Assembly: GCF_024298765.1 (NCBI RefSeq)
Contig: NZ_CP101211.1
Reading direction: 5' to 3' (one strand)
Length of the DNA: 64,000 bases
From: Escherichia coli
GTDB lineage: Bacteria; Pseudomonadota; Gammaproteobacteria; Enterobacterales; Enterobacteriaceae
Part shown: positions 8,105-22,637 of the stretch, piece by piece
Numbering within the stretch: position 1 is the first letter of the stretch
Layout of the letters: each line of letters begins with the position of its first letter
Notes under the pieces: generated by a model
Told to the model about the DNA's origin: nothing
What the model saw: only the letters and a program-made list of their open reading frames with translations
The model's database searches: none
Translations under genes and position numbers: made by a program

Positions 8105-8161
8105 TCCTGTTAAGGGGGAACCCTAACGGGGCTTCTCTTTGAACAAATCGAGGAGCGGAAA

Positions 8162-10693: not shown

Positions 10694-11049
10694 ATGGGAT
10701 TTGTTATGAAACCTCTGATATTTGTATCTCAGAGTTATCCCATCTTGAATTTAGTGCGTTTTTAAGTACGGATGGTGCTGCTACCATTGCTATAGCAAAA
10801 AACGGAACTAATTTTACTGGACTTATGCAACTGAATAACGACTATTCTTTATTGTTTTATCATGATGGTAAAATAAATATGGAAGGTCTGATTAAACAAA
10901 TGGAATTAAAAGGTTATATGTATCAGGGAGCAATGGGCAATGATGATGTTGTTGCTGAGTTTCCCGGTATTCTTTTAATTTCACCAGAGTAGCTTTAATA
11001 TCAACCCTATCGGGAAATCTTTCCCGTTGGGGAGGGTTTCCCCTTTTTT

Positions 11050-12189
11050 TTGGAGAAACCCATGACTTTAAATACTTCAATGCTTAACAAAGTATCTGCA
11101 AAACAAATCTCTGAGAATTTTGCAAAATCATATCCAGATTTACTGGAAGGTGCAGTTATAACAAAAATTGAAATAAGTGGCTGTCAAGGATCGCGTCGAA
11201 CCGATAAAATCGATTTGTCTTATGATGGAGATGATATTACGGATCAAAAAAGCGTATCTAAAAGCGAAGTACGCTGGATTGACATAAAAGCCCTTAGCTT
11301 CAAAAGTACGATTACCAGCAGAATATCAACTCTTTGCTCACGCTTGTGCATCCGCTATAGCAATATGTGGATTTTACCAGTATCCAGTATGGAAGAGTTT
11401 CTGGAAGGGGCCCAAGAGATTGAACGAGAGTTTCAGGCAGGTATTCAAAACGTTGTAGACAATTATGAGATGCATATTGAGGCTGAAAAAAATAGAAGCC
11501 CAAGAATGTCTTCTTTGATTGATCAGTTGAAATTAACTAAAGATGATTTCATAAAATCCTTTAGATTTAATATTGCTCACTTTATTCCTTTTACGCCTAT
11601 TAGCGTTGAAGGTGATGAAACCCAGGACTACTATCAGGAACAATTGATAACAGATCTGGCAGAAGAAGCAATGAAGGTTTATGAAAAAATTAGCAAAAAT
11701 AACAATTTGCGCTCAAGTACTATTGACCGACTGAAGCAAATGCAAAATAAGATCATTAGCTTCATGTTTATACATAAAGAGGCGGCAGTACTTGCAGAAG
11801 CTATAAAACACATAATGAATAATTTACCTAAAGGTGCCATTTCTGAACCTCGCGACGTTGCGGTGTTACAGCAGTGGTTTTATTTCATGAGTGATGCTTC
11901 AATGTTAAAGCGTATTATTTCAGGAGAGCAAAAGGTTACTGACTGGTTGGAATCTATTACCAGATCATTTAATCAAAGCTCACAAACAGAACCGAACGCG
12001 CTACAGAACACAGGTATTGAAGCTATTTTAGATTCAACAAATGTGTTCCAGGTTGAACCTGTCGTAGAGAACGATATAAATAACAGCACGTTTTCAAACA
12101 CTGATCCTGTAGCTGAACCTGAGAAATCAGTTTCGCAACAGGAAGACAATGTTGAAAATGGTTTTGATATCGAGCTCAAAGGCTGGTAA
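11050..12189 (+). CDS. Hypothetical protein
   Basis: 379-aa ORF between the AAA+ and vWA genes; hairpin/T-run upstream and downstream. Confidence 0.35.
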   Translation: MEKPMTLNTSMLNKVSAKQISENFAKSYPDLLEGAVITKIEISGCQGSRRTDKIDLSYDGDDITDQKSVSKSEVRWIDIKALSFKSTITSRISTLCSRLCIRYSNMWILPVSSMEEFLEGAQEIEREFQAGIQNVVDNYEMHIEAEKNRSPRMSSLIDQLKLTKDDFIKSFRFNIAHFIPFTPISVEGDETQDYYQEQLITDLAEEAMKVYEKISKNNNLRSSTIDRLKQMQNKIISFMFIHKEAAVLAEAIKHIMNNLPKGAISEPRDVAVLQQWFYFMSDASMLKRIISGEQKVTDWLESITRSFNQSSQTEPNALQNTGIEAILDSTNVFQVEPVVENDINNSTFSNTDPVAEPEKSVSQQEDNVENGFDIELKGW

Positions 12190-12266
12190 CTGTTTGCTTT
12201 ATTAAAAACCCCAGATGGGTACTTCACCATCTGGGTGAGTACCCCTTTTTTATAAAGAGGTATTCT

Positions 12267-14279: not shown

Positions 14280-14350
14280 TAAACTCTACCCAATCGGGGC
14301 AAAAGGCCCCGGTGGGTCTTTTTGCTCCATGAAGGAATAAGGAGCAAAAT

Positions 14351-14572: not shown

Positions 14573-14613
14573 ATGTTGAGGGCCCCCGGGCCCTCTTTCT
14601 TAAATTCTGCGTT

Positions 14614-15918
14614 GTGGGTTTCTCCCTGTCTTCTGCACCGCAGAAGGCATTGAGAAACTCACAATGCCAGATAAGAGAGATCATCATGACTTATGCATCC
14701 CCGGCTCTTCGTCGTAATCCACAGGAAGTATCTGAACACTTTATTAAACTCGTTCATGCTCGAATTGCTGAAGTGTCTGGCTGGAAGTATATATTCGAAA
14801 GAATACCTGCTTTCAAAGACGCTTGTGCAAAAGCCCCGAGCCAGGTTCCTTGCCCGTTTACTGGCGCAGGGAAATCGAAGTTTCGTTTCCGACAAAAAGA
14901 CCTTTATACCGGATGTGCGATCCATAATGACTTTCCGGTAAATGAGTTTTGCGACGGAATTGATGTTCTGGCGAAATATTATGAATTAAGTAAAACGCAG
15001 ACTTGCAAAAAGATTCTCTCAGATTTTTTCGGGATGGATCTGCATGCTCCGTTAACTGACGCCGACATTGAAAATGAACGACGCTATAAATCAGCAGTTC
15101 GTGCCACAGAAACTCTTGACCGAGAGGAAGTGGCAAAGCGAATGCGAAAACTTGATGTGATGTATCACTATACCGGTGAAATCAAGCCTAATACTCCTGT
15201 TGCTTTGTACCTCCGTAATCGTGGGATCTCCCGCTTACTGAGTCACTTACCAAAGGATTTAGGCTTTAATAACCGGATCTACTATTGGGATAAAGATAAG
15301 CAGAAATCGATTATCTATCCGGGAATGATTGCGATCTATCGTGACACCCGAGGTCGGCCTCTGACTATTCATAGAACATACGTAGACAAAAATGGTGATA
15401 AGGCACCTGTAGAAAATCCAAAGCTGATGATGAAGCCTCCTGCCGATATGACAGGTGGCTCAATTCAGTTGTTTGACCCTCACTATGATTCAGGTAGTTC
15501 GACCTGGACACTGGGAGTGGCTGAAGGGATCGAGAACGCGCTTTCTGTTGTAGAAGCGACTTCAACACCATGCTGGGCAGCCAGCTCCGCATGGTGCCTT
15601 GAAAACGTTACTGTTCCTGATTTTTTACTGCCTCCGCCGGATGTAAAATCTATAAACTTTTATATCTGGGCGGATAAGGATATTGCTAACTCACAAGGCA
15701 CTCGTGCCGGTATTGAAGCTGCTCAGCGACTTCAAAGCCGCATGGTTGAGTTTTTGGCTAAACGATATCCCGCATCAAAGCTGACAATTGAAGTCTTCGA
15801 ACCAGCACAAGATATTCCTGATGGGAAAAAGGGTATCGACTGGAACGATGTTCTCCAGTTAACAGGGCAGGATGGATTCCCGATTCACTGGGCTCCTGAA
15901 TGTCTTAATCAGCTGTAA
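14614..15918 (+). CDS. Primase-like protein (P4-type primase zinc-binding motif plus Toprim-like segment)
   Basis: CPFTGAGKSKFRF resembles the CPxCGGxDRFRF Zn-binding motif of primase-helicases; later GVAEGIENALS resembles a Toprim acidic motif; true start may be internal ATG at 14686. Confidence 0.45.
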   Translation: MGFSLSSAPQKALRNSQCQIREIIMTYASPALRRNPQEVSEHFIKLVHARIAEVSGWKYIFERIPAFKDACAKAPSQVPCPFTGAGKSKFRFRQKDLYTGCAIHNDFPVNEFCDGIDVLAKYYELSKTQTCKKILSDFFGMDLHAPLTDADIENERRYKSAVRATETLDREEVAKRMRKLDVMYHYTGEIKPNTPVALYLRNRGISRLLSHLPKDLGFNNRIYYWDKDKQKSIIYPGMIAIYRDTRGRPLTIHRTYVDKNGDKAPVENPKLMMKPPADMTGGSIQLFDPHYDSGSSTWTLGVAEGIENALSVVEATSTPCWAASSAWCLENVTVPDFLLPPPDVKSINFYIWADKDIANSQGTRAGIEAAQRLQSRMVEFLAKRYPASKLTIEVFEPAQDIPDGKKGIDWNDVLQLTGQDGFPIHWAPECLNQL

Positions 15919-15950
15919 CAACGATAACTCCCCCGCTTTTTGCGGGGGGG

Positions 15951-15996: not shown

Positions 15997-16188
15997 CGCT
16001 TTCCTTCGTGATAATTACCTGCCTTTAAGGTCTTTTCACGGCTGAGATGCTTGCTCAGTTAAATAAATGTGCGGTACTACTGGCTATGGTCGGTTGTATG
16101 ACATGGTTATTCCATAAACTATTAAAACCCATAACGGGAGTATTACCGTTATGGTGATGCTCGTCGTTTTACATCGGAGAGCATTTTA

Positions 16189-16710
16189 ATGAATTTTCAA
16201 ATTAACGAAGTTTTTAATAAATTTGCTGCTGTTATAAAATCGCGCATCGTCAATGAACCATCGTCATGCTATTTGCTGCATGATAATGAGATAGATATAA
16301 CGATTTTGAAACATAGCATATTAGAAAATGACAGAAACCTGTTGTACGTAGTTCGTCCTTCAGGAACGTGTTTGTTGCGTTGTGACAAATATTTCTATCC
16401 GAAATATTATCTTCGTTGCCGTGGAGATTATAAGTCATTCATATATGTCCATCTTGATCTACATAGTGGTGAAGCTAAAGAAATCACATGGGAGCAAGCA
16501 GACGATATGCTGTCTAGTCCAGGAAAACCCCCATTAAAAGGGAATCTTGGACGATTTGAGTATATAAAAGTTGTGGTTGAGGACCTTCGTATTCGAGGTT
16601 ACGCTGATTATCTTCCTGCGTATAATCTTGATGACCTTCGCCGTTTTGCCTTACAGGACGACCGCCCATCCCTTGTCAGATACATTGACAATGTCATGGC
16701 AACGGTCTGA
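16189..16710 (+). CDS. Hypothetical protein
   Basis: 173-aa ORF with RBS ggagag. Confidence 0.35.
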   Translation: MNFQINEVFNKFAAVIKSRIVNEPSSCYLLHDNEIDITILKHSILENDRNLLYVVRPSGTCLLRCDKYFYPKYYLRCRGDYKSFIYVHLDLHSGEAKEITWEQADDMLSSPGKPPLKGNLGRFEYIKVVVEDLRIRGYADYLPAYNLDDLRRFALQDDRPSLVRYIDNVMATV

Positions 16711-16788
16711 TTGATTGCTAATTGATTTACATATTTTCCCTGATGGCCAACCTGCATCAGGGAGGCCTCAATAACGAATGGAGGCTGT

Positions 16789-17667
16789 ATGAAGTTAGCT
16801 ACGGACCTGGTAAAAGCTATTTTGATTAGAAATGGCGTTGAACCAGTAAATATAAGCGAATCATCTAAGTTATCTTTGAAACAACCACTGACAGAACTTA
16901 AATTCAGTTTATATTTGCGAACTGAGCATTTATCTCACTTCCTACCCGGTTATGTTTATTCTATAAAAGAATGTCCACTGTCATATGACATCGGGATCGA
17001 AATTCAGAAAATCTTCGAAAGTTTACATTTGTTAAACGAAGAATTTGAATCCCTCGGTTTTGTTTCTGTATGGATAGAAATGCATCAAAGCATTTTTGAA
17101 CAAAGTCGGTTTAAGAAAAGTAACTTTACTTTTCGGGAGGAAGAGGTCGAGCTTGCTAAAGGGCTTGTTTGTTCTCACAATTCACAAATAAGTAATGCGG
17201 CTTATTTCTGGCTTCAGCACTTTGAGGAGTTTATGATTTATGTTCGTAATAAGCTTATCGACCTCTTTCGAGAGGCCTATGACCTGATCCTTGGAATGCA
17301 GCAAGTATTTTTCATTCGGGAAAAGGAAGAGCTGTTGAAAACTATAAGTTATGGCGATGAGCTGTATGAGGTGAAATTCATGGCGGCTGAGCTTTACTCT
17401 ATCGAACAGAACTTAAAGTGTTCTGAATCGATAAGTACAAAATCTCAAGCTTCGGCATATATTAACCGCATCCGTGAGTTTGTGCGTTCGGGGTGGAGGC
17501 AGGGCTATATAGTCTGCCATCATAAGCGAAGTAATCAAATTTCATCATTGTCATTACCGATGTACTTGAAAGATACGTCAGGCCGAAGTGCTCGAAAGCG
17601 AGTAAAACGTCTTATATCTTCTACAGTTTGTGGTAGAAATAAAGATTTAGGTCTTACAGATTTTTAA
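16789..17667 (+). CDS. Hypothetical protein, member of tandem paralog array
   Basis: 292-aa ORF; shared N-terminal pattern (h-x-x-h-L-x-x-x-G) with neighbours; hairpin CCCTGATG..CATCAGGG upstream. Confidence 0.35.
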   Translation: MKLATDLVKAILIRNGVEPVNISESSKLSLKQPLTELKFSLYLRTEHLSHFLPGYVYSIKECPLSYDIGIEIQKIFESLHLLNEEFESLGFVSVWIEMHQSIFEQSRFKKSNFTFREEEVELAKGLVCSHNSQISNAAYFWLQHFEEFMIYVRNKLIDLFREAYDLILGMQQVFFIREKEELLKTISYGDELYEVKFMAAELYSIEQNLKCSESISTKSQASAYINRIREFVRSGWRQGYIVCHHKRSNQISSLSLPMYLKDTSGRSARKRVKRLISSTVCGRNKDLGLTDF

Positions 17668-17737
17668 TTAAATTATACCCATGTGGGGATCACACCCCAT
17701 ATGGGAGTGATCCCTTTTTTTATTGAGAGAGGATCAC

Positions 17738-18493
17738 ATGAAAATTATCGAAAAAATCATTAATGCCTTTTTGGTTGTTCAACATAAAAAAATACAGGTT
17801 AAAAACATTACATTTTTAGACAATGGGCAGGGCATGTTCTCTGGTATGTCTTTTGATGCTGATGTTTCACTGGAGTTTATGTATGAATCAGCAAAAGCAT
17901 ATAGTTCTTGTTTCTGTGATATTCCCTTTCCAGGTTTTGAAGATGCAAATCTGGAGGAAATTACGAAATTTCAATTAGATGCTCTGAAGCAAAGAAAGAA
18001 TCATTCTTTCTTTGTTAACCATTTGAGGTTTCCTATAGTTTTAAGGGAAGGGTGCAAAATCGAAAGAGGAGAAGTCTATTCAATTTCGAATTGCACTTAT
18101 AATAAAGAAAGATTGCAGTATCTTTTTTCTCAGGATATTTACGGTAAGTTGTATAATTCCTTAGAGAAAGAATTAAGCTCGTTTTTCTCATTTATCAATG
18201 TTGAGGTGCACGAGTTGTTAAAAGATGCTGTATGCTTTGCATTAAAAATCCTGAATAAGATATCTTTGGATACACCTGAAAGACTTATTAAAGCTTTTAA
18301 TTATCGTGACTGGTATTGTAGTTACGATGTTGAGCTTTTTAGGAAAGGCTTACCTGGTCATATTCTGGAAGAGCTCATTGCTCCAGATATCTTACTTTCA
18401 GACCTTAACGGTTGTAGAAAAATACTTAGAAATGCAAAACGATTTCTAAATGGACATACACAAACCAATTGTGTTTATATTAAATATGAATGA
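17738..18493 (+). CDS. Hypothetical protein, possible paralog-array member
   Basis: ATG preceded by RBS gagagagga (track gives TTG start at 17723); hairpin plus T-run immediately upstream. Confidence 0.35.
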   Translation: MKIIEKIINAFLVVQHKKIQVKNITFLDNGQGMFSGMSFDADVSLEFMYESAKAYSSCFCDIPFPGFEDANLEEITKFQLDALKQRKNHSFFVNHLRFPIVLREGCKIERGEVYSISNCTYNKERLQYLFSQDIYGKLYNSLEKELSSFFSFINVEVHELLKDAVCFALKILNKISLDTPERLIKAFNYRDWYCSYDVELFRKGLPGHILEELIAPDILLSDLNGCRKILRNAKRFLNGHTQTNCVYIKYE

Positions 18494-18741
18494 TGGTTGG
18501 GGCCTGTTGATACCTCACACTCAGCTAAGTTGATGTCTGACAAAGAAATTAATAACCGAAGTGACTTGAAGAATTTTTCAAAGGTCTTTTTCAAAGAGTG
18601 TTTAAGTTCTGGTAAGTCGGAATATGAAAACCATCTTAGTGAAAAAGAACATGCGCTTCGCTATAATTATTAATTAAAATTATTTTCTCCCATAGGGATT
18701 TCTCCCTATGGGAGAAATCCCTCTATTAAGAGGGTATTGAA

Positions 18742-19662
18742 ATGAATGCTATACAAAAGTTAGTTGAATCTATTCTTGTTAAAATGGGTTTTGTTGGCGC
18801 TGTAGTGGAAAATATATATTTGGATTCAAAACCATTTCGGCATATTCGATTTGTGGCTGATATTCCAGTAATATCTTTTCTACCTCATTTGGTGAAATAT
18901 CTTAAGGGTGCAGACCATCTTTACAGTGGTAACGATGATTTGCATCCTCTTTTCATTTATTTTTCCGAAGCGGCTACATTAAAAGCAGGTCCTGTAAATC
19001 TCGCGAACTTTCGTTTTGAAGTTTCTATAGCTTCAACTCATTTACGACTGGTCTCAGAGCAGCCTGATTTGCTTTTCAAAGGATTTAACCGGGATAATCT
19101 AGAATACGTTTATTACCGCTCAGATTTGGCCTCTAAGGATCTTATACTAGGCCTTGTTGAACACGGTTCTCCTTTCATAAAACATCTACATGGACTTATA
19201 CAAAAGCGAATTTTAAACGAGTTCTCTCTGATTTTTTCTGTTCTTGAAAAGATTTTAGAAAGCGCGAAGCCACAAATTCTTGCTTGCTTCCATAGTGTTG
19301 ATTATGAAATGAACGTAAAAATAATAGCCGAAGCTATACCTGAAACTGTATCTAATCAGATAGTCACATCTGATTATATAGTTAATTCTATATCAGATGC
19401 GGACAAGTTTATAAATCATGTTCGTCGCTATTTAGCAGGCAGGGTAATGAAGAGGCGGATATACGCTGAATTAGATGTTTGTGAAGAAACATCAAGTATT
19501 TCACTAGTGAACTTAGGATGCTTTACGTCTCCTCTGCTCGTTACGGAATATCAAATGTTTAAGCCACACTCTTCAGGGTTATATCGAAAAGCTATAAACA
19601 ACTCCTTAAAACAGTTCAAACCAGAAATGCATGTACCTTCTGAAGAACTCTTTTATAATTAA
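18742..19662 (+). CDS. Hypothetical protein, paralog-array member
   Basis: 306-aa ORF; nested perfect palindromes directly upstream. Confidence 0.35.
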   Translation: MNAIQKLVESILVKMGFVGAVVENIYLDSKPFRHIRFVADIPVISFLPHLVKYLKGADHLYSGNDDLHPLFIYFSEAATLKAGPVNLANFRFEVSIASTHLRLVSEQPDLLFKGFNRDNLEYVYYRSDLASKDLILGLVEHGSPFIKHLHGLIQKRILNEFSLIFSVLEKILESAKPQILACFHSVDYEMNVKIIAEAIPETVSNQIVTSDYIVNSISDADKFINHVRRYLAGRVMKRRIYAELDVCEETSSISLVNLGCFTSPLLVTEYQMFKPHSSGLYRKAINNSLKQFKPEMHVPSEELFYN

Positions 19663-19728
19663 TCTAACCCATCCGGGAACCTGCTTCCCGGTGGGAAGCA
19701 CTTCCTTTTTAGTCATGAGGTAGTGTAA

Positions 19729-20667
19729 ATGTTTAAAGAATCTGACCACGTGGAATTTGTTAGTGCCTTTCTTTATCAAAATTTAGGCCTTAATGTTTCC
19801 GCTGACGATATAACCGTTCAATTATCTGATACTTCGTTCGACAAAGTAACCTTTGATTACGATGTAGATATCGATAATTTAAATTGTATGTTGGATCTCT
19901 ACATATCTGAGCTAATAAAGCACAACGCATCTTACTCCGATTCTATTCTTTTGAAACAAAAAATAATTTATTTTCTTGGAGTATTTAAGAATTTCGGATT
20001 TTTTACGTTTGATATTCGCGGATATAGTAATACTTTAAGCCCAGTTAAAGTTATTGATATTGTTTCAATGATTATTAATGACTGTGAAGAGTTATCTAAA
20101 GCTAATTCTTCTACTGATGCTATAAGAAATCTTTATCTCGATAAAATGAAGGTGGATGGGAAAGTGTTAGTTGCGAAATTTGCACTTAAACAGTTTTTTC
20201 ATTCCGACTTTGGTGACTTTATCTCATTTGTCGAGAAAAGAATTACAGATTGTCTTAATGAAACTTTAAGGATTATCAAAGCTGTTGAACATGGCTTTGT
20301 ACGTGTAGGGCAGCATAAGATTAATCGCCGTATTAATGATGACTTAAAGTTATGCATTGATTTCAATACTGATGATTATCCGGCAAATATGCCAGATATA
20401 TATATTAAGTTTAACGATACATTTGATGGGAACGGGGCGTTATATTGTGACAATGATGCCCTCATATCCCTCTATACCGATGTTGCTTCAATTATCAATG
20501 TGCCGGTGATGATGGAAGTAAGATTGATCAATAAAAGAGGGCGTGTTGTCTGTGATTCTTCGCATTCAACTTACGTATCTCTCGAAAGTAATGACCGATA
20601 CAGAGTAACTGATCGCACATTACTAATAACTGAAGCTTTTGACGATTTTCGTAACGCGTCTCAATGA
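19729..20667 (+). CDS. Hypothetical protein, paralog-array member (intact sister of the IS1-split gene)
   Basis: 312 aa; N- and C-terminal blocks align with the 20833 gene (VLVAKFALKQFFHSDF vs VMIARFALQQFWDTHF); near-identical RBS gaggtagtgtaaatg. Confidence 0.4.
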   Translation: MFKESDHVEFVSAFLYQNLGLNVSADDITVQLSDTSFDKVTFDYDVDIDNLNCMLDLYISELIKHNASYSDSILLKQKIIYFLGVFKNFGFFTFDIRGYSNTLSPVKVIDIVSMIINDCEELSKANSSTDAIRNLYLDKMKVDGKVLVAKFALKQFFHSDFGDFISFVEKRITDCLNETLRIIKAVEHGFVRVGQHKINRRINDDLKLCIDFNTDDYPANMPDIYIKFNDTFDGNGALYCDNDALISLYTDVASIINVPVMMEVRLINKRGRVVCDSSHSTYVSLESNDRYRVTDRTLLITEAFDDFRNASQ

Positions 20668-21443
20668 TCCTTTTGCTTCAGTCCAAAAAAGTAACTTTGG
20701 TTGGCTGAAGACACTTGTCTATGACAATGTAAAATCTGTCGCTGGCATCTTCTTTTAGCTTAACCAAATTTTTATCTAACCCAGTGGGGAAGTCGCTTCC
20801 CTTCTGGGGCACTTCCTCTCAAATTCGAGGTAGTGTATATGACACATTCATCTGATGATAAAAACTATGTCCGAGCAGTTCTGAGTTATCTTGGCATAGA
20901 TTTTGATGAGGCGGATATAGTATTAAGTGTTTGCCATTGTCAAAGTGACGAGCTTTCTTTTACCTGTAATATCAAAGCTATTGAACTCAAGAATGCTGTT
21001 GATTTATATGTCGATAGTATCTCTGAGAATGAAATAGAAGCTTTAAACAGAGAATCTTTAAAATCGCGACTCTGTTACTTTCTTGAGGTGTTTGACGCAG
21101 TCTCTGGTCAGTACCTTGAAATTTCAGGAAAACACTTTGCAACTAGTCGTTTTGAATATGATGATGTTTGTAGTGAAGTTCTTAGCATGTCTAATGATGT
21201 TTCTCAGTCGAAAGGTTATGACCGGGATGAATATAACAGACTGATGCAGGTTGATGGTCAGGTTATGATTGCCCGTTTTGCTTTGCAACAGTTCTGGGAT
21301 ACTCATTTTATTGGACTAATAACATTTGTATCTGAGTCTATAACATCGAGCCTCTATAAAGCTTATGAAACTTTTAGTGATATTAGTTTGGCTTGCTATA
21401 AACTGAGTGAATATTCTTATTCACGCTCGGTAATGACTCCAAC

Positions 21444-21947
21444 TTATTGATAGTGTTTTATGTTCAGATAATGCCCGATGACTTTGTCATGCAGCTCCAC
21501 CGATTTTGAGAACGACAGCGACTTCCGTCCCAGCCGTGCCAGGTGCTGCCTCAGATTCAGGTTATGCCGCTCAATTCGCTGCGTATATCGCTTGCTGATT
21601 ACGTGCAGCTTTCCCTTCAGGCGGGATTCATACAGCGGCCAGCCATCCGTCATCCATATCACCACGTCAAAGGGTGACAGCAGGCTCATAAGACGCCCCA
21701 GCGTCGCCATAGTGCGTTCACCGAATACGTGCGCAACAACCGTCTTCCGGAGCCTGTCATACGCGTAAAACAGCCAGCGCTGGCGCGATTTAGCCCCGAC
21801 GTATCCCCACTGTTCGTCCATTTCCGCGCAGACGATGACGTCACTGCCCGGCTGTATGCGCGAGGTTACCGACTGCGGCCTGAGTTTTTTAAATGGCGGA
21901 AAATCGTGTTGAGGCCAACGCCCATAATGCGGGCGGTTGCCCGGCAT
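21444..21947 (-). CDS. insB: IS1 InsB (transposase made by frameshift fusion with InsA)
   Basis: 167-aa ORF matching IS1 InsB as recalled. Confidence 0.8.
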
Positions 21948-22141
21948 CCAACGCCATTCATGGCCATATCAATGATTTTCTGGTGCGTACCGGGTTGAGA
22001 AGCGGTGTAAGTGAACTGCAGTTGCCATGTTTTACGGCAGTGAGAGCAGAGATAGCGCTGATGTCCGGCGGTGCTTTTGCCGTTACGCACCACCCCGTCA
22101 GTAGCTGAACAGGAGGGACAGCTGATAGAAACAGAAGCCAC
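21866..22141 (-). CDS. insA: IS1 InsA
   Basis: 91-aa [46 protein letters not shown] matches IS1 InsA as recalled. Confidence 0.8.
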
Positions 22142-22611
22142 TGGAGCACCTCAAAAACACCATCATACACTAAATCAGTAAGTTGGCAGCATCACCTTCA
22201 CGCTCTATCAACAGTGAATTGACCCTTAATATTTCACTTAAAGAAAATGACTTCTGTGAGGACCTATCTGATTGCTATATGGAAGATGAGGCTTTACCTT
22301 CTGGTAGGGTAATTTCTCGACGCAACAATGACTCCATAATAAGTATTTATGAGAGCTATGCTGCGGCTTCTTATATTCCGATGATTGCATCTTTGGAAGT
22401 CGTTGATGAATACGGCGAAGTGGTTACTGACCTCTGCCATACCGTTTATGTTTCAGAGTTAACCGGTGGGCGGATTAAAATCCACGACCGTAATGACTTA
22501 GTATCTGAAGTTTTCGATAACCTAAGAAATTTAAATCTTGCAGTTGGAGATTCAGTTTCACAAGCTGCTTGATTCTTTCCCTGATTTTGATTTTTTCTCA
22601 CATACTCTTAT

Positions 22612-22637
22612 GGCACGGTTTCCGTGCCTTTTTTTTG
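22612..22637 (+). terminator. Intrinsic terminator after the paralog array
   Basis: GGCACGG-ttt-CCGTGCC hairpin followed by TTTTTTTT. Confidence 0.6.

Follow-up and report, generated by a model that had tools for sequence, protein, structure and literature searches.

What are the five diverged genes that stand in tandem at positions 16789-22572 of an Escherichia coli plasmid, and why does a GC-rich palindrome precede each of them? The genes, here named g1 to g5, lie in a 64,000-nucleotide stretch of contig NZ_CP101211.1 (assembly GCF_024298765.1), referred to below as the window, which is IncHI2 plasmid backbone. IncHI plasmids are vehicles for the spread of mcr-1, of carbapenemase genes and, in typhoid, of multidrug resistance; the backbone block of about 14 kb to which the array belongs is annotated almost wholly as hypothetical. 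An earlier note had described the genes as a tandem array of rapidly diverging paralogs on a mobile element and had proposed anti-defence, immunity or entry exclusion as their role. We found that the palindrome is one half of a bipartite hairpin module, H1/H2, in which the second hairpin is predicted to hide the Shine-Dalgarno (SD) sequence, and that this module recurs throughout the block. The reading that we favour, with moderate confidence, is default translational occlusion of a co-regulated block, whose array would supply fast-evolving accessory binding proteins.

Two adjacent hairpins were located upstream of each array gene. H1 is the GC-rich palindrome, a stem of 9-15 bp of the form CCC(A/U)..GGG / CCC..(U/A)GGG. 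H2 starts 0-5 nucleotides (nt) after H1; its pyrimidine-rich anti-SD strand pairs with the SD sequence, and the hairpin ends 0-7 nt before the ATG or reaches slightly into it. The same arrangement, including the gap of 0-5 nt, was present at 21 of 21 array genes from five plasmid lineages despite differing stem sequences. The window features given here lie on the plus strand unless stated otherwise. H1 and H2 occupy 16737-16763 and 16764-16786 before the ATG of g1 at 16789, 17678-17705 and 17707-17737 before that of g2 at 17738, 18684-18717 and 18719-18734 before that of g3 at 18742, 19668-19695 and 19698-19726 before that of g4 at 19729, and 20780-20808 and 20809-20836 before that of g5 at 20839.

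A GC-rich palindrome before each gene, as claimed in the earlier note, is indeed present at all five, yet it is no hallmark of the array, because the module also precedes the genes encoding DUF3150, the CobT-like VWA protein, hyp73, hyp125 and g0 and occurs on a plasmid without any array. The respective modules were mapped to 8106-8156 for hyp125 (gene start 8162), 11005-11061 for the DUF3150 gene (11062), 12210-12265 for the VWA/CobT-like gene (12267), 14288-14349 for hyp73 (14351) and, for g0 (ATG 16189), to 16129-16154 (H1) and 16156-16185 (H2). Under fixed criteria, 10 of 14 block genes carried the module as compared to none of 31 other annotated genes in 46 kb (Fisher P = 3e-7); it was absent before trhI, g6 and all genes downstream. 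Orthologs of hyp125, DUF3150, VWA, hyp73 and g0 are also preceded by the module, and it is kept in the array-less IncHI1B plasmid, whose DUF3150 is only 38% identical. No Rfam 15 family matched the modules at E ≤ 1. Apparently, H1/H2 is a block-wide RNA element, undescribed as far as could be found; to find it repeated before at least ten genes in a row is unusual.

The module has a defined structure, a fixed place at the start codon, a bias towards the sense strand, covarying stems and a distribution restricted to the block. Against dinucleotide shuffles, the z-scores of folding were -3.6 to -7.4 for the five array upstream regions; the mean for 42 modules was -4.7. The sense strand was the more stable one in 34 of these 42 (P = 3e-5). 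G.U pairs numbered 73 as compared to seven A.C 1x1 mismatches. Alignment of all 21 array modules with MAFFT and RNAalifold misaligned them and yielded no structure; a covariance model seeded with only six g4/g5 modules was used instead. In the window it recovered the g2, g3, DUF3150, VWA and hyp73 modules; in the plasmids L002 and L015 it recovered the modules of g0 orthologs. All hits with E ≤ 2.5e-4 were on the plus strand and all but one (in L015) ended at the ATG; further plus-strand hits were not obtained in the 64-kb window, and the window's own g0, g1 and hyp125 modules went undetected at E ≤ 10. In an alignment of 25 sequences, 89.8% of cells were paired as compared to 71.8 ± 1.4 in shuffles, and 16 of 20 pairs changed on both sides (shuffles, 10.2). 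None of 500 shuffles reached any of the five measures taken, and slid controls had 50-60% of cells paired. For H2 taken separately, eight of nine pairs changed on both sides and 88.5% of cells were paired. Like that of an SD-sequestering operator or attenuator, the SD sequence here is part of a helix that is conserved, covaries and adjoins the start codon.

Predicted stabilities averaged -10.9 kcal/mol for H2 (range -7.5 to -17.6) and -17 kcal/mol for H1, and predicted pairing of the SD arm exceeded 95% over the range of 20-42°C. Structured ribosome-binding sites depress translation initiation; therefore, with a stable H2 and an SD arm paired to this extent, initiation should be strongly depressed by default. 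According to the mechanism proposed here, H2 would keep initiation of every cistron low, H1 would insulate the H2 fold from the upstream coding sequence, stabilise it and remove single-stranded standby space, and a trans-acting trigger would relieve the block; H1 may stabilise the RNA as well. The upper 5' arm of H1 resembles an SD sequence and could pair with the anti-SD strand, which would give a possible ON state. Among SD-open folds, this partly conserved alternative pairing ranked first in about half of the 21 array modules, and it was the RNAalifold consensus for the g2 group; an RNA switch in the module is possible as judged from these modelled folds. If the proposal is true, occlusion of the ribosome-binding sites of at least ten consecutive genes would amount to tight, coordinated post-transcriptional control of the block. 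The module would then offer a concrete handle for finding when and why the block is expressed.

Several specific modes of control were considered and rejected. An RNA thermometer of the ROSE or fourU type does not fit a predicted unpaired probability of the SD arm of 0.026 at 25°C and 0.045 at 42°C. Control by CsrA/RsmA would require GGA motifs in hairpin loops as well as at the SD sequence, whereas GGA was found in the H1 loop in one of 40 modules. TrhI was dismissed as an RNA helicase opening H2, being a UvrD-type DNA helicase. A switch triggered by ribosomes was discarded since the SD sequence stays paired in nearly all modules when the H1 5' arm is held unpaired. H1 is also no intrinsic terminator: a scan for GC-rich hairpins with a U-run at most 2 nt behind them flagged none of the H1 hairpins, only an alternative hairpin at 19682-19700 and the terminator hairpin at 22612-22628.

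The five consecutive open reading frames (ORFs) of the array are all present. Their listed positions proved correct; an in-frame TGA in g2 and the splitting of g5 by an IS1 element had been overlooked. Intact genes are g1 (16789-17667, 292 amino acids [aa]), g3 (18742-19662, 306 aa) and g4 (19729-20667, 312 aa, isoelectric point [pI] 4.8). The g2 gene extends from 17738 to 18673 and contains the TGA at 18491-18493, where the annotated product of 251 aa ends (17738-18493). Past the TGA the frame runs to 18673, giving 311 aa; intact orthologs, including the 98% identical variant in L017, have 311-312 aa. The 60 codons 3' of the TGA still match ortholog C-termini (...HALRYNY). The TGA may reflect either recent pseudogenisation or a read-through site. 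The 5' part of g5 (20839-21428) is separated from its 3' part (22206-22572) by IS1 (768 bp, insA/insB, 21429-22196, minus strand), flanked by the 9-bp target duplication TTCACGCTC (21420-21428 and 22197-22205), the left copy of which forms the last nine bases of the 5' part. In-silico removal of IS1 restored an ORF of 318 aa with a pI of 4.3 and the end -SQAA. This insertion occurs in some IncHI2 plasmids and is missing from many otherwise identical ones. Two of the five array copies are inactivated in the window, g2 by the TGA and g5 by IS1. The spacer between g4 and g5 (20668-20779) is consistently long, the spacers before g5 measuring 171-213 nt in L002 and L006; it holds an imperfect hairpin (20676-20710) and weak promoter-like hexamers (20708-20735), and g5 may have its own transcription start.

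The paralogy that the earlier note had asserted was confirmed by pairwise and profile alignment. BLASTP aligned g4 and g5 end-to-end with 27% identity over 309 aa (E = 5e-38). Group profiles were built with orthologs from four other plasmid lineages; the g2 group matched the g3 group at E = 5e-14 and the g1 group matched the g3 group at E = 2e-7, and a combined g1/g2/g3 profile matched the g4/g5 profile over 250 collinear columns (probability 92.4%, E = 5e-7). The flanking gene g0, used as a control, gave E = 0.09-0.75. The order of helices and strands is the same in the AlphaFold2 (AF2) models of g4 and g3 (predicted local distance difference test [pLDDT] 91.6 and 82.7, respectively), and the g3 model matched proteins of 292-293 aa with template modelling (TM) scores of 0.67-0.70, which are probably g1 orthologs as judged by length, organism and source genome. 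Hence, g1 to g5 are remote paralogs in three subfamilies, A (g1), B (g2 and g3) and C (g4 and g5). Near-identical ribosome-binding regions, likewise pointed out before, were found at 19717-19731 for g4 (gaggtagtgtaaatg) and at 20827-20841 for g5 (gaggtagtgtatatg).

That no known domain would be recognisable also held: no family in Pfam, NCBIfam, PHROGs or PADLOC matched the array proteins, so their function cannot be read from homology. No relative of the family was found in the PDB and none of the g4/g5 family among IMG/VR viral contigs; a HMMER search of 1.84 billion representative proteins returned only 38 family members. A catalytic motif was not recognisable among the invariant positions. 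The proteins are moderately hydrophilic to near-neutral (grand average of hydropathy -0.40 to +0.06), and the g4/g5 subfamily is acidic (pI 4.3-4.9). We describe the family as orphan, cytoplasmic alpha/beta proteins of about 300 aa. Distant relatives common to the g3 and g4 models in the AlphaFold database (AFDB) were uncharacterised or named 'NgrC'. Literature searches found no paper on bacterial NgrC among those listed, and nothing on the accessions of the array proteins, on DUF3150 in plasmids or on IncHI hairpins.

Some features of the C-termini were recorded separately. Tails are conserved in the g1 group (..GRNKDLGLTDF) and in the g2 group (..HA(I/L/R)R(Y/H)(G/N)Y). The g5-type proteins of the window (22561-22572) and of L002, L006, L009 and L010 end in -AA or -A (SQAA, AIAA, AQAA, SKAA, SEAA, KA, QCA), which recalls ssrA-like ClpXP degradation tags. 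A likeness of the C-terminal domain of g4 to Gram-positive adhesin repeats was lost with a larger profile and a bias filter and was rejected as unreliable. It came from P0040, a 2078-aa LPXTG adhesin with AgI/II-C2-like repeats (residues ~1066-1800), nine repeats of which had matched the g4/g5 profile at E = 5e-10, in g4 at residues 192-294; the match is probably compositional.

The proposal of diverged paralogs standing in tandem on a mobile element was also supported by related IncHI-type plasmids, where the slot is fixed and always lies between g0 and g6. Five copies are present in the window, L002, L006 and L017, four in L009, two in L010/L011 and none in an IncHI1B Klebsiella plasmid, in which the rest of the block is kept. 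The family was found only adjoining this block. The claim of rapid divergence was upheld as well, the array genes being the most diverged of the block: between the window and L006, identity was 46-51% for g1, g3 and g4 and 63% for g5, as compared to 55-80% for their neighbours. Between the window and L017, all genes are 97-100% identical except g4 (86%), and synonymous divergence (dS) of g4 is 0.30, that of its neighbours 0.005-0.05. The divergent tract starts sharply at the start of g4 (~19700) and fades by ~20300, covering the 5' two thirds of the gene; within it identity is 76-90%, in the surrounding 5 kb 96-100%. Its 5' breakpoint coincides with the g4 module and start codon. This pattern indicates that recombination has exchanged the allele, an event confined to g4. 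Growth of the array was probably due to duplication of a unit of 5' RNA module plus gene. The case is clearest for g4 and g5, which have homologous modules and homologous ribosome-binding regions; the copies would then have diverged, with at least one allele replacement by recombination.

Without detectable Pfam or PDB relatives and as part of a variable, recombining, partly decaying accessory module, the array proteins are candidates for host-interaction specificity. We suggest, with low confidence, that they may be non-enzymatic specificity variants which, while the plasmid establishes itself, bind targets of the host or of defence systems. An anti-defence role would match the acidity of g4 and g5 and an array that varies, diverges fast, recombines and is partly decaying. 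A more far-reaching version would see H1/H2 as an undescribed class of cis-regulatory RNA switch that gates a whole IncHI regulon (the CobS/CobT-like machine, the primase, g0 and the array) on a plasmid or host signal such as entry into a new cell, with the array proteins as diversifying effectors of new fold against host defence or host factors; we hold this version to be rather unlikely.

A number of results weigh against default occlusion and a host-directed array. Four block genes (hyp325, AAA, hyp55 and toprim) fail the module criteria. The module folds are predictions, and the covariation counts are biased towards structure because the alignment was fitted to the covariance model. The alternative (ON) conformer is predicted to cost 5-15 kcal/mol, and the covariation of its pairing is modest (78% of cells paired as compared to 73% in shuffles). 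Masking of the H1 5' arm, as a terminating ribosome might do, leaves the SD sequence paired in nearly all modules (mean 7% freed), and no trigger, activator or leader peptide was found for the module. As to the proteins, PADLOC, Pfam, NCBIfam and PHROGs provided no link to anti-defence, immunity or entry exclusion, the functions put forward in the earlier note. The dN/dS ratio of g4 against L017 is 0.24, indicating purifying and not positive selection; IncHI1B plasmids dispense with the array, and it is decaying in the window.

Could the hairpins serve the mRNA itself more than its translation? As intercistronic stability or processing elements they would be exonuclease barriers or, after cleavage, 5' stabilisers, and SD pairing would tune constitutive expression with neither gating nor trigger. 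H1 is an autonomous and very stable hairpin (mean -17 kcal/mol) in every intergenic spacer, the distant homologous block of the Aeromonas plasmid pAeme5 has UUCG-tetraloop hairpins before many genes with no SD occlusion, and the H2 loops, 7.5 nt long on average (range 3-13) and A/U-rich by inspection, could serve as S1 or standby sites. However, H2 is as conserved and covarying as H1 (8/9 pairs change on both sides), its end always lies within 0-7 nt of the ATG, a constraint that stabilisation of the RNA alone would not call for, and with -7.5 to -17.6 kcal/mol it should depress initiation strongly; we consider it rather unlikely that the hairpins are mainly stability or processing elements. 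Ribosomes that have just terminated upstream might instead open the structure and be the only ones to initiate the next cistron, and the upstream stop codon does lie 5-25 nt before H1 for the internal array genes. The repY/repZ system of IncI/IncB plasmids follows such coupling logic. Here, simple coupling of termination and reinitiation is very unlikely because the modules of g0 and g5 are far from any upstream stop codon: g0 lies ~240 nt after a terminator-like hairpin, and the g5 spacer measures 171-213 nt in three lineages. Modules thus precede genes without a nearby upstream ORF end, and with the whole H1 5' arm masked a mean of only 7% of the SD sequence is freed.

The palindromes might also act as DNA, namely as operators of a global repressor, as recombination sites delimiting cassettes, or as priming or promoter hairpins in single-stranded DNA transfer. 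The base of the palindromes is a conserved CCC/GGG, a primase-like protein is among the products of the block, and a recombination breakpoint falls at the g4 module. The stem sequences, however, covary freely and are not conserved, the sense strand is the better folding one, with 73 G.U pairs to seven A.C mismatches, and H2 incorporates the SD sequence itself; these three findings speak against roles at the DNA level. Nor is there a GTTRRRY core, as in the attC sites of an integron cassette array, in or next to the hairpins, and the array genes are paralogs, not unrelated cassettes. The promoter scan counted 16 sigma-70-like sites as compared to 22.3 in shuffles and none in a module. All in all, a DNA-level role appears extremely unlikely. 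A different question is whether the co-regulated CobS-like AAA+/CobT-like VWA machine uses the array proteins as substrates or adaptors, in which case they would not be directed at host or defence at all. The array lies directly downstream of the AAA/DUF3150/VWA/toprim genes in the same orientation, shares its 5' module with them and has its family found only next to this block. Yet IncHI1B plasmids keep a complete and conserved block although they have no array, and copy number and alleles of the array vary whereas the machine genes are conserved, which makes such a role distinctly unlikely. Default occlusion of the block, with an accessory array, remains the reading that we prefer.

The region around the array (7.2 kb) is matched with 99-100% identity by more than 1,000 enterobacterial plasmids; these are conjugative (MOBH/MPF_F) and 190-450 kb in size. 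In a typed example, the IncHI2A plasmid pXJW9B277-HI2-N, the array region lies downstream of the end of Tra2 (rsp, trhF, trhU, trhN and the UvrD-like helicase gene trhI). The co-directional run comprises hypothetical genes, the genes for the CobS-like AAA ATPase, DUF3150 and the CobT-like VWA protein, a 73-aa ORF, the gene for the primase-like toprim protein, g0, g1-g5, g6 (91 aa), small ORFs and Tus. The array adjoins Tra2, and neither a relaxase nor an oriT is annotated in the inspected positions 1-76 kb of pXJW9B277-HI2-N. The conserved g0 gene (16189-16710, 173 aa) is located directly upstream of the array slot and is not an array paralog. A canonical intrinsic terminator follows g5 at 22612-22636 (hairpin 22612-22628, GGCACGG-TTT-CCGTGCC then T8), and a terminator-like hairpin follows the toprim gene at 15928-15950; hence, g0 to g5 probably form one transcription unit.

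The GC content of 16000-20000 is 0.35-0.38 as compared to 0.42-0.54 elsewhere, making the array the most AT-rich part of the window. The plasmid has an Hha-family protein of its own, and the array is a plausible target of H-NS/Hha. Upstream of the toprim/primase-like gene, a very stable long hairpin (about -47 kcal/mol) is present at 14596-14678, unlike the bipartite module; it is kept in the distant IncHI1B plasmid at most 80 nt upstream of the toprim ATG (L015, 17506). The Aeromonas media plasmid pAeme5 (L016) contains a homologous helicase-toprim-AAA-DUF3150-VWA block whose repeated intergenic motif is of another kind: two or three short hairpins with UUCG tetraloops (ATCCTTCGGGAT..GCCTTCGGGC), which do not occlude the SD sequence, for example upstream of 7700, 15215, 15881, 17451, 17969 and 18519.

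Among known proteins, 'NgrC' and uncharacterised Enterobacterales proteins of about 300 aa in AFDB are similar to the g4 model over the full length (TM 0.59-0.65, identity 10-14%), and some of these proteins are also weak matches of the g3 model; sequence similarity to the array proteins is undetectable, however, and the name tells no function. Co-oriented, uncharacterised and fast-evolving genes on a conjugative plasmid are likewise found in the anti-defence islands of plasmid leading regions (PMC11541004). The present locus differs from such islands: it has neither a known anti-defence family nor a promoter of the Frpo type, and the 76 kb inspected in pXJW9B277-HI2-N show no oriT or relaxase. 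The Frpo elements screened in that study measured 50-350 bp (PMC11541004). In the window, the promoter scan gave no excess of -35/-10 sites that would indicate a promoter of the Frpo/ssi type, and no such site fell in a module.

With regard to RNA elements, a stable hairpin in each spacer of a polycistronic unit is a feature shared with long operons, whose intercistronic hairpins include repetitive extragenic palindromes and bacterial interspersed mosaic elements (REP/BIME) and the RNase III sites of the T7 early region. In contrast to these, a second, SD-occluding hairpin stands at a fixed distance from the ATG here, the copies share no repeat sequence beyond CCC/GGG, and RNase III sites of the classical kind would need longer stems. 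Plasmid-borne precedents for a local SD helix are provided by the ermC and cat attenuators and by repY/repZ of IncI/IncB plasmids, in which an alternative pairing frees the SD sequence. The present modules differ from these in that no leader peptide overlaps H1, masking of the H1 5' arm leaves the SD sequence paired, and modules also occur where there is no adjacent upstream ORF. The mom mRNA of phage Mu carries two adjacent stem-loops just 5' of the start, of which the downstream one occludes the SD sequence and AUG and the upstream one is the handle by which the activator Com, acting in trans, opens the structure. As compared to mom, no Com-like factor was identified here, the module precedes at least ten genes instead of one, and the stems differ between copies; the layout of two stem-loops is the same. 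Among the systems compared, the H1/H2 module is most like such SD-occluding operators with an adjacent handle hairpin and the erm/cat attenuators.

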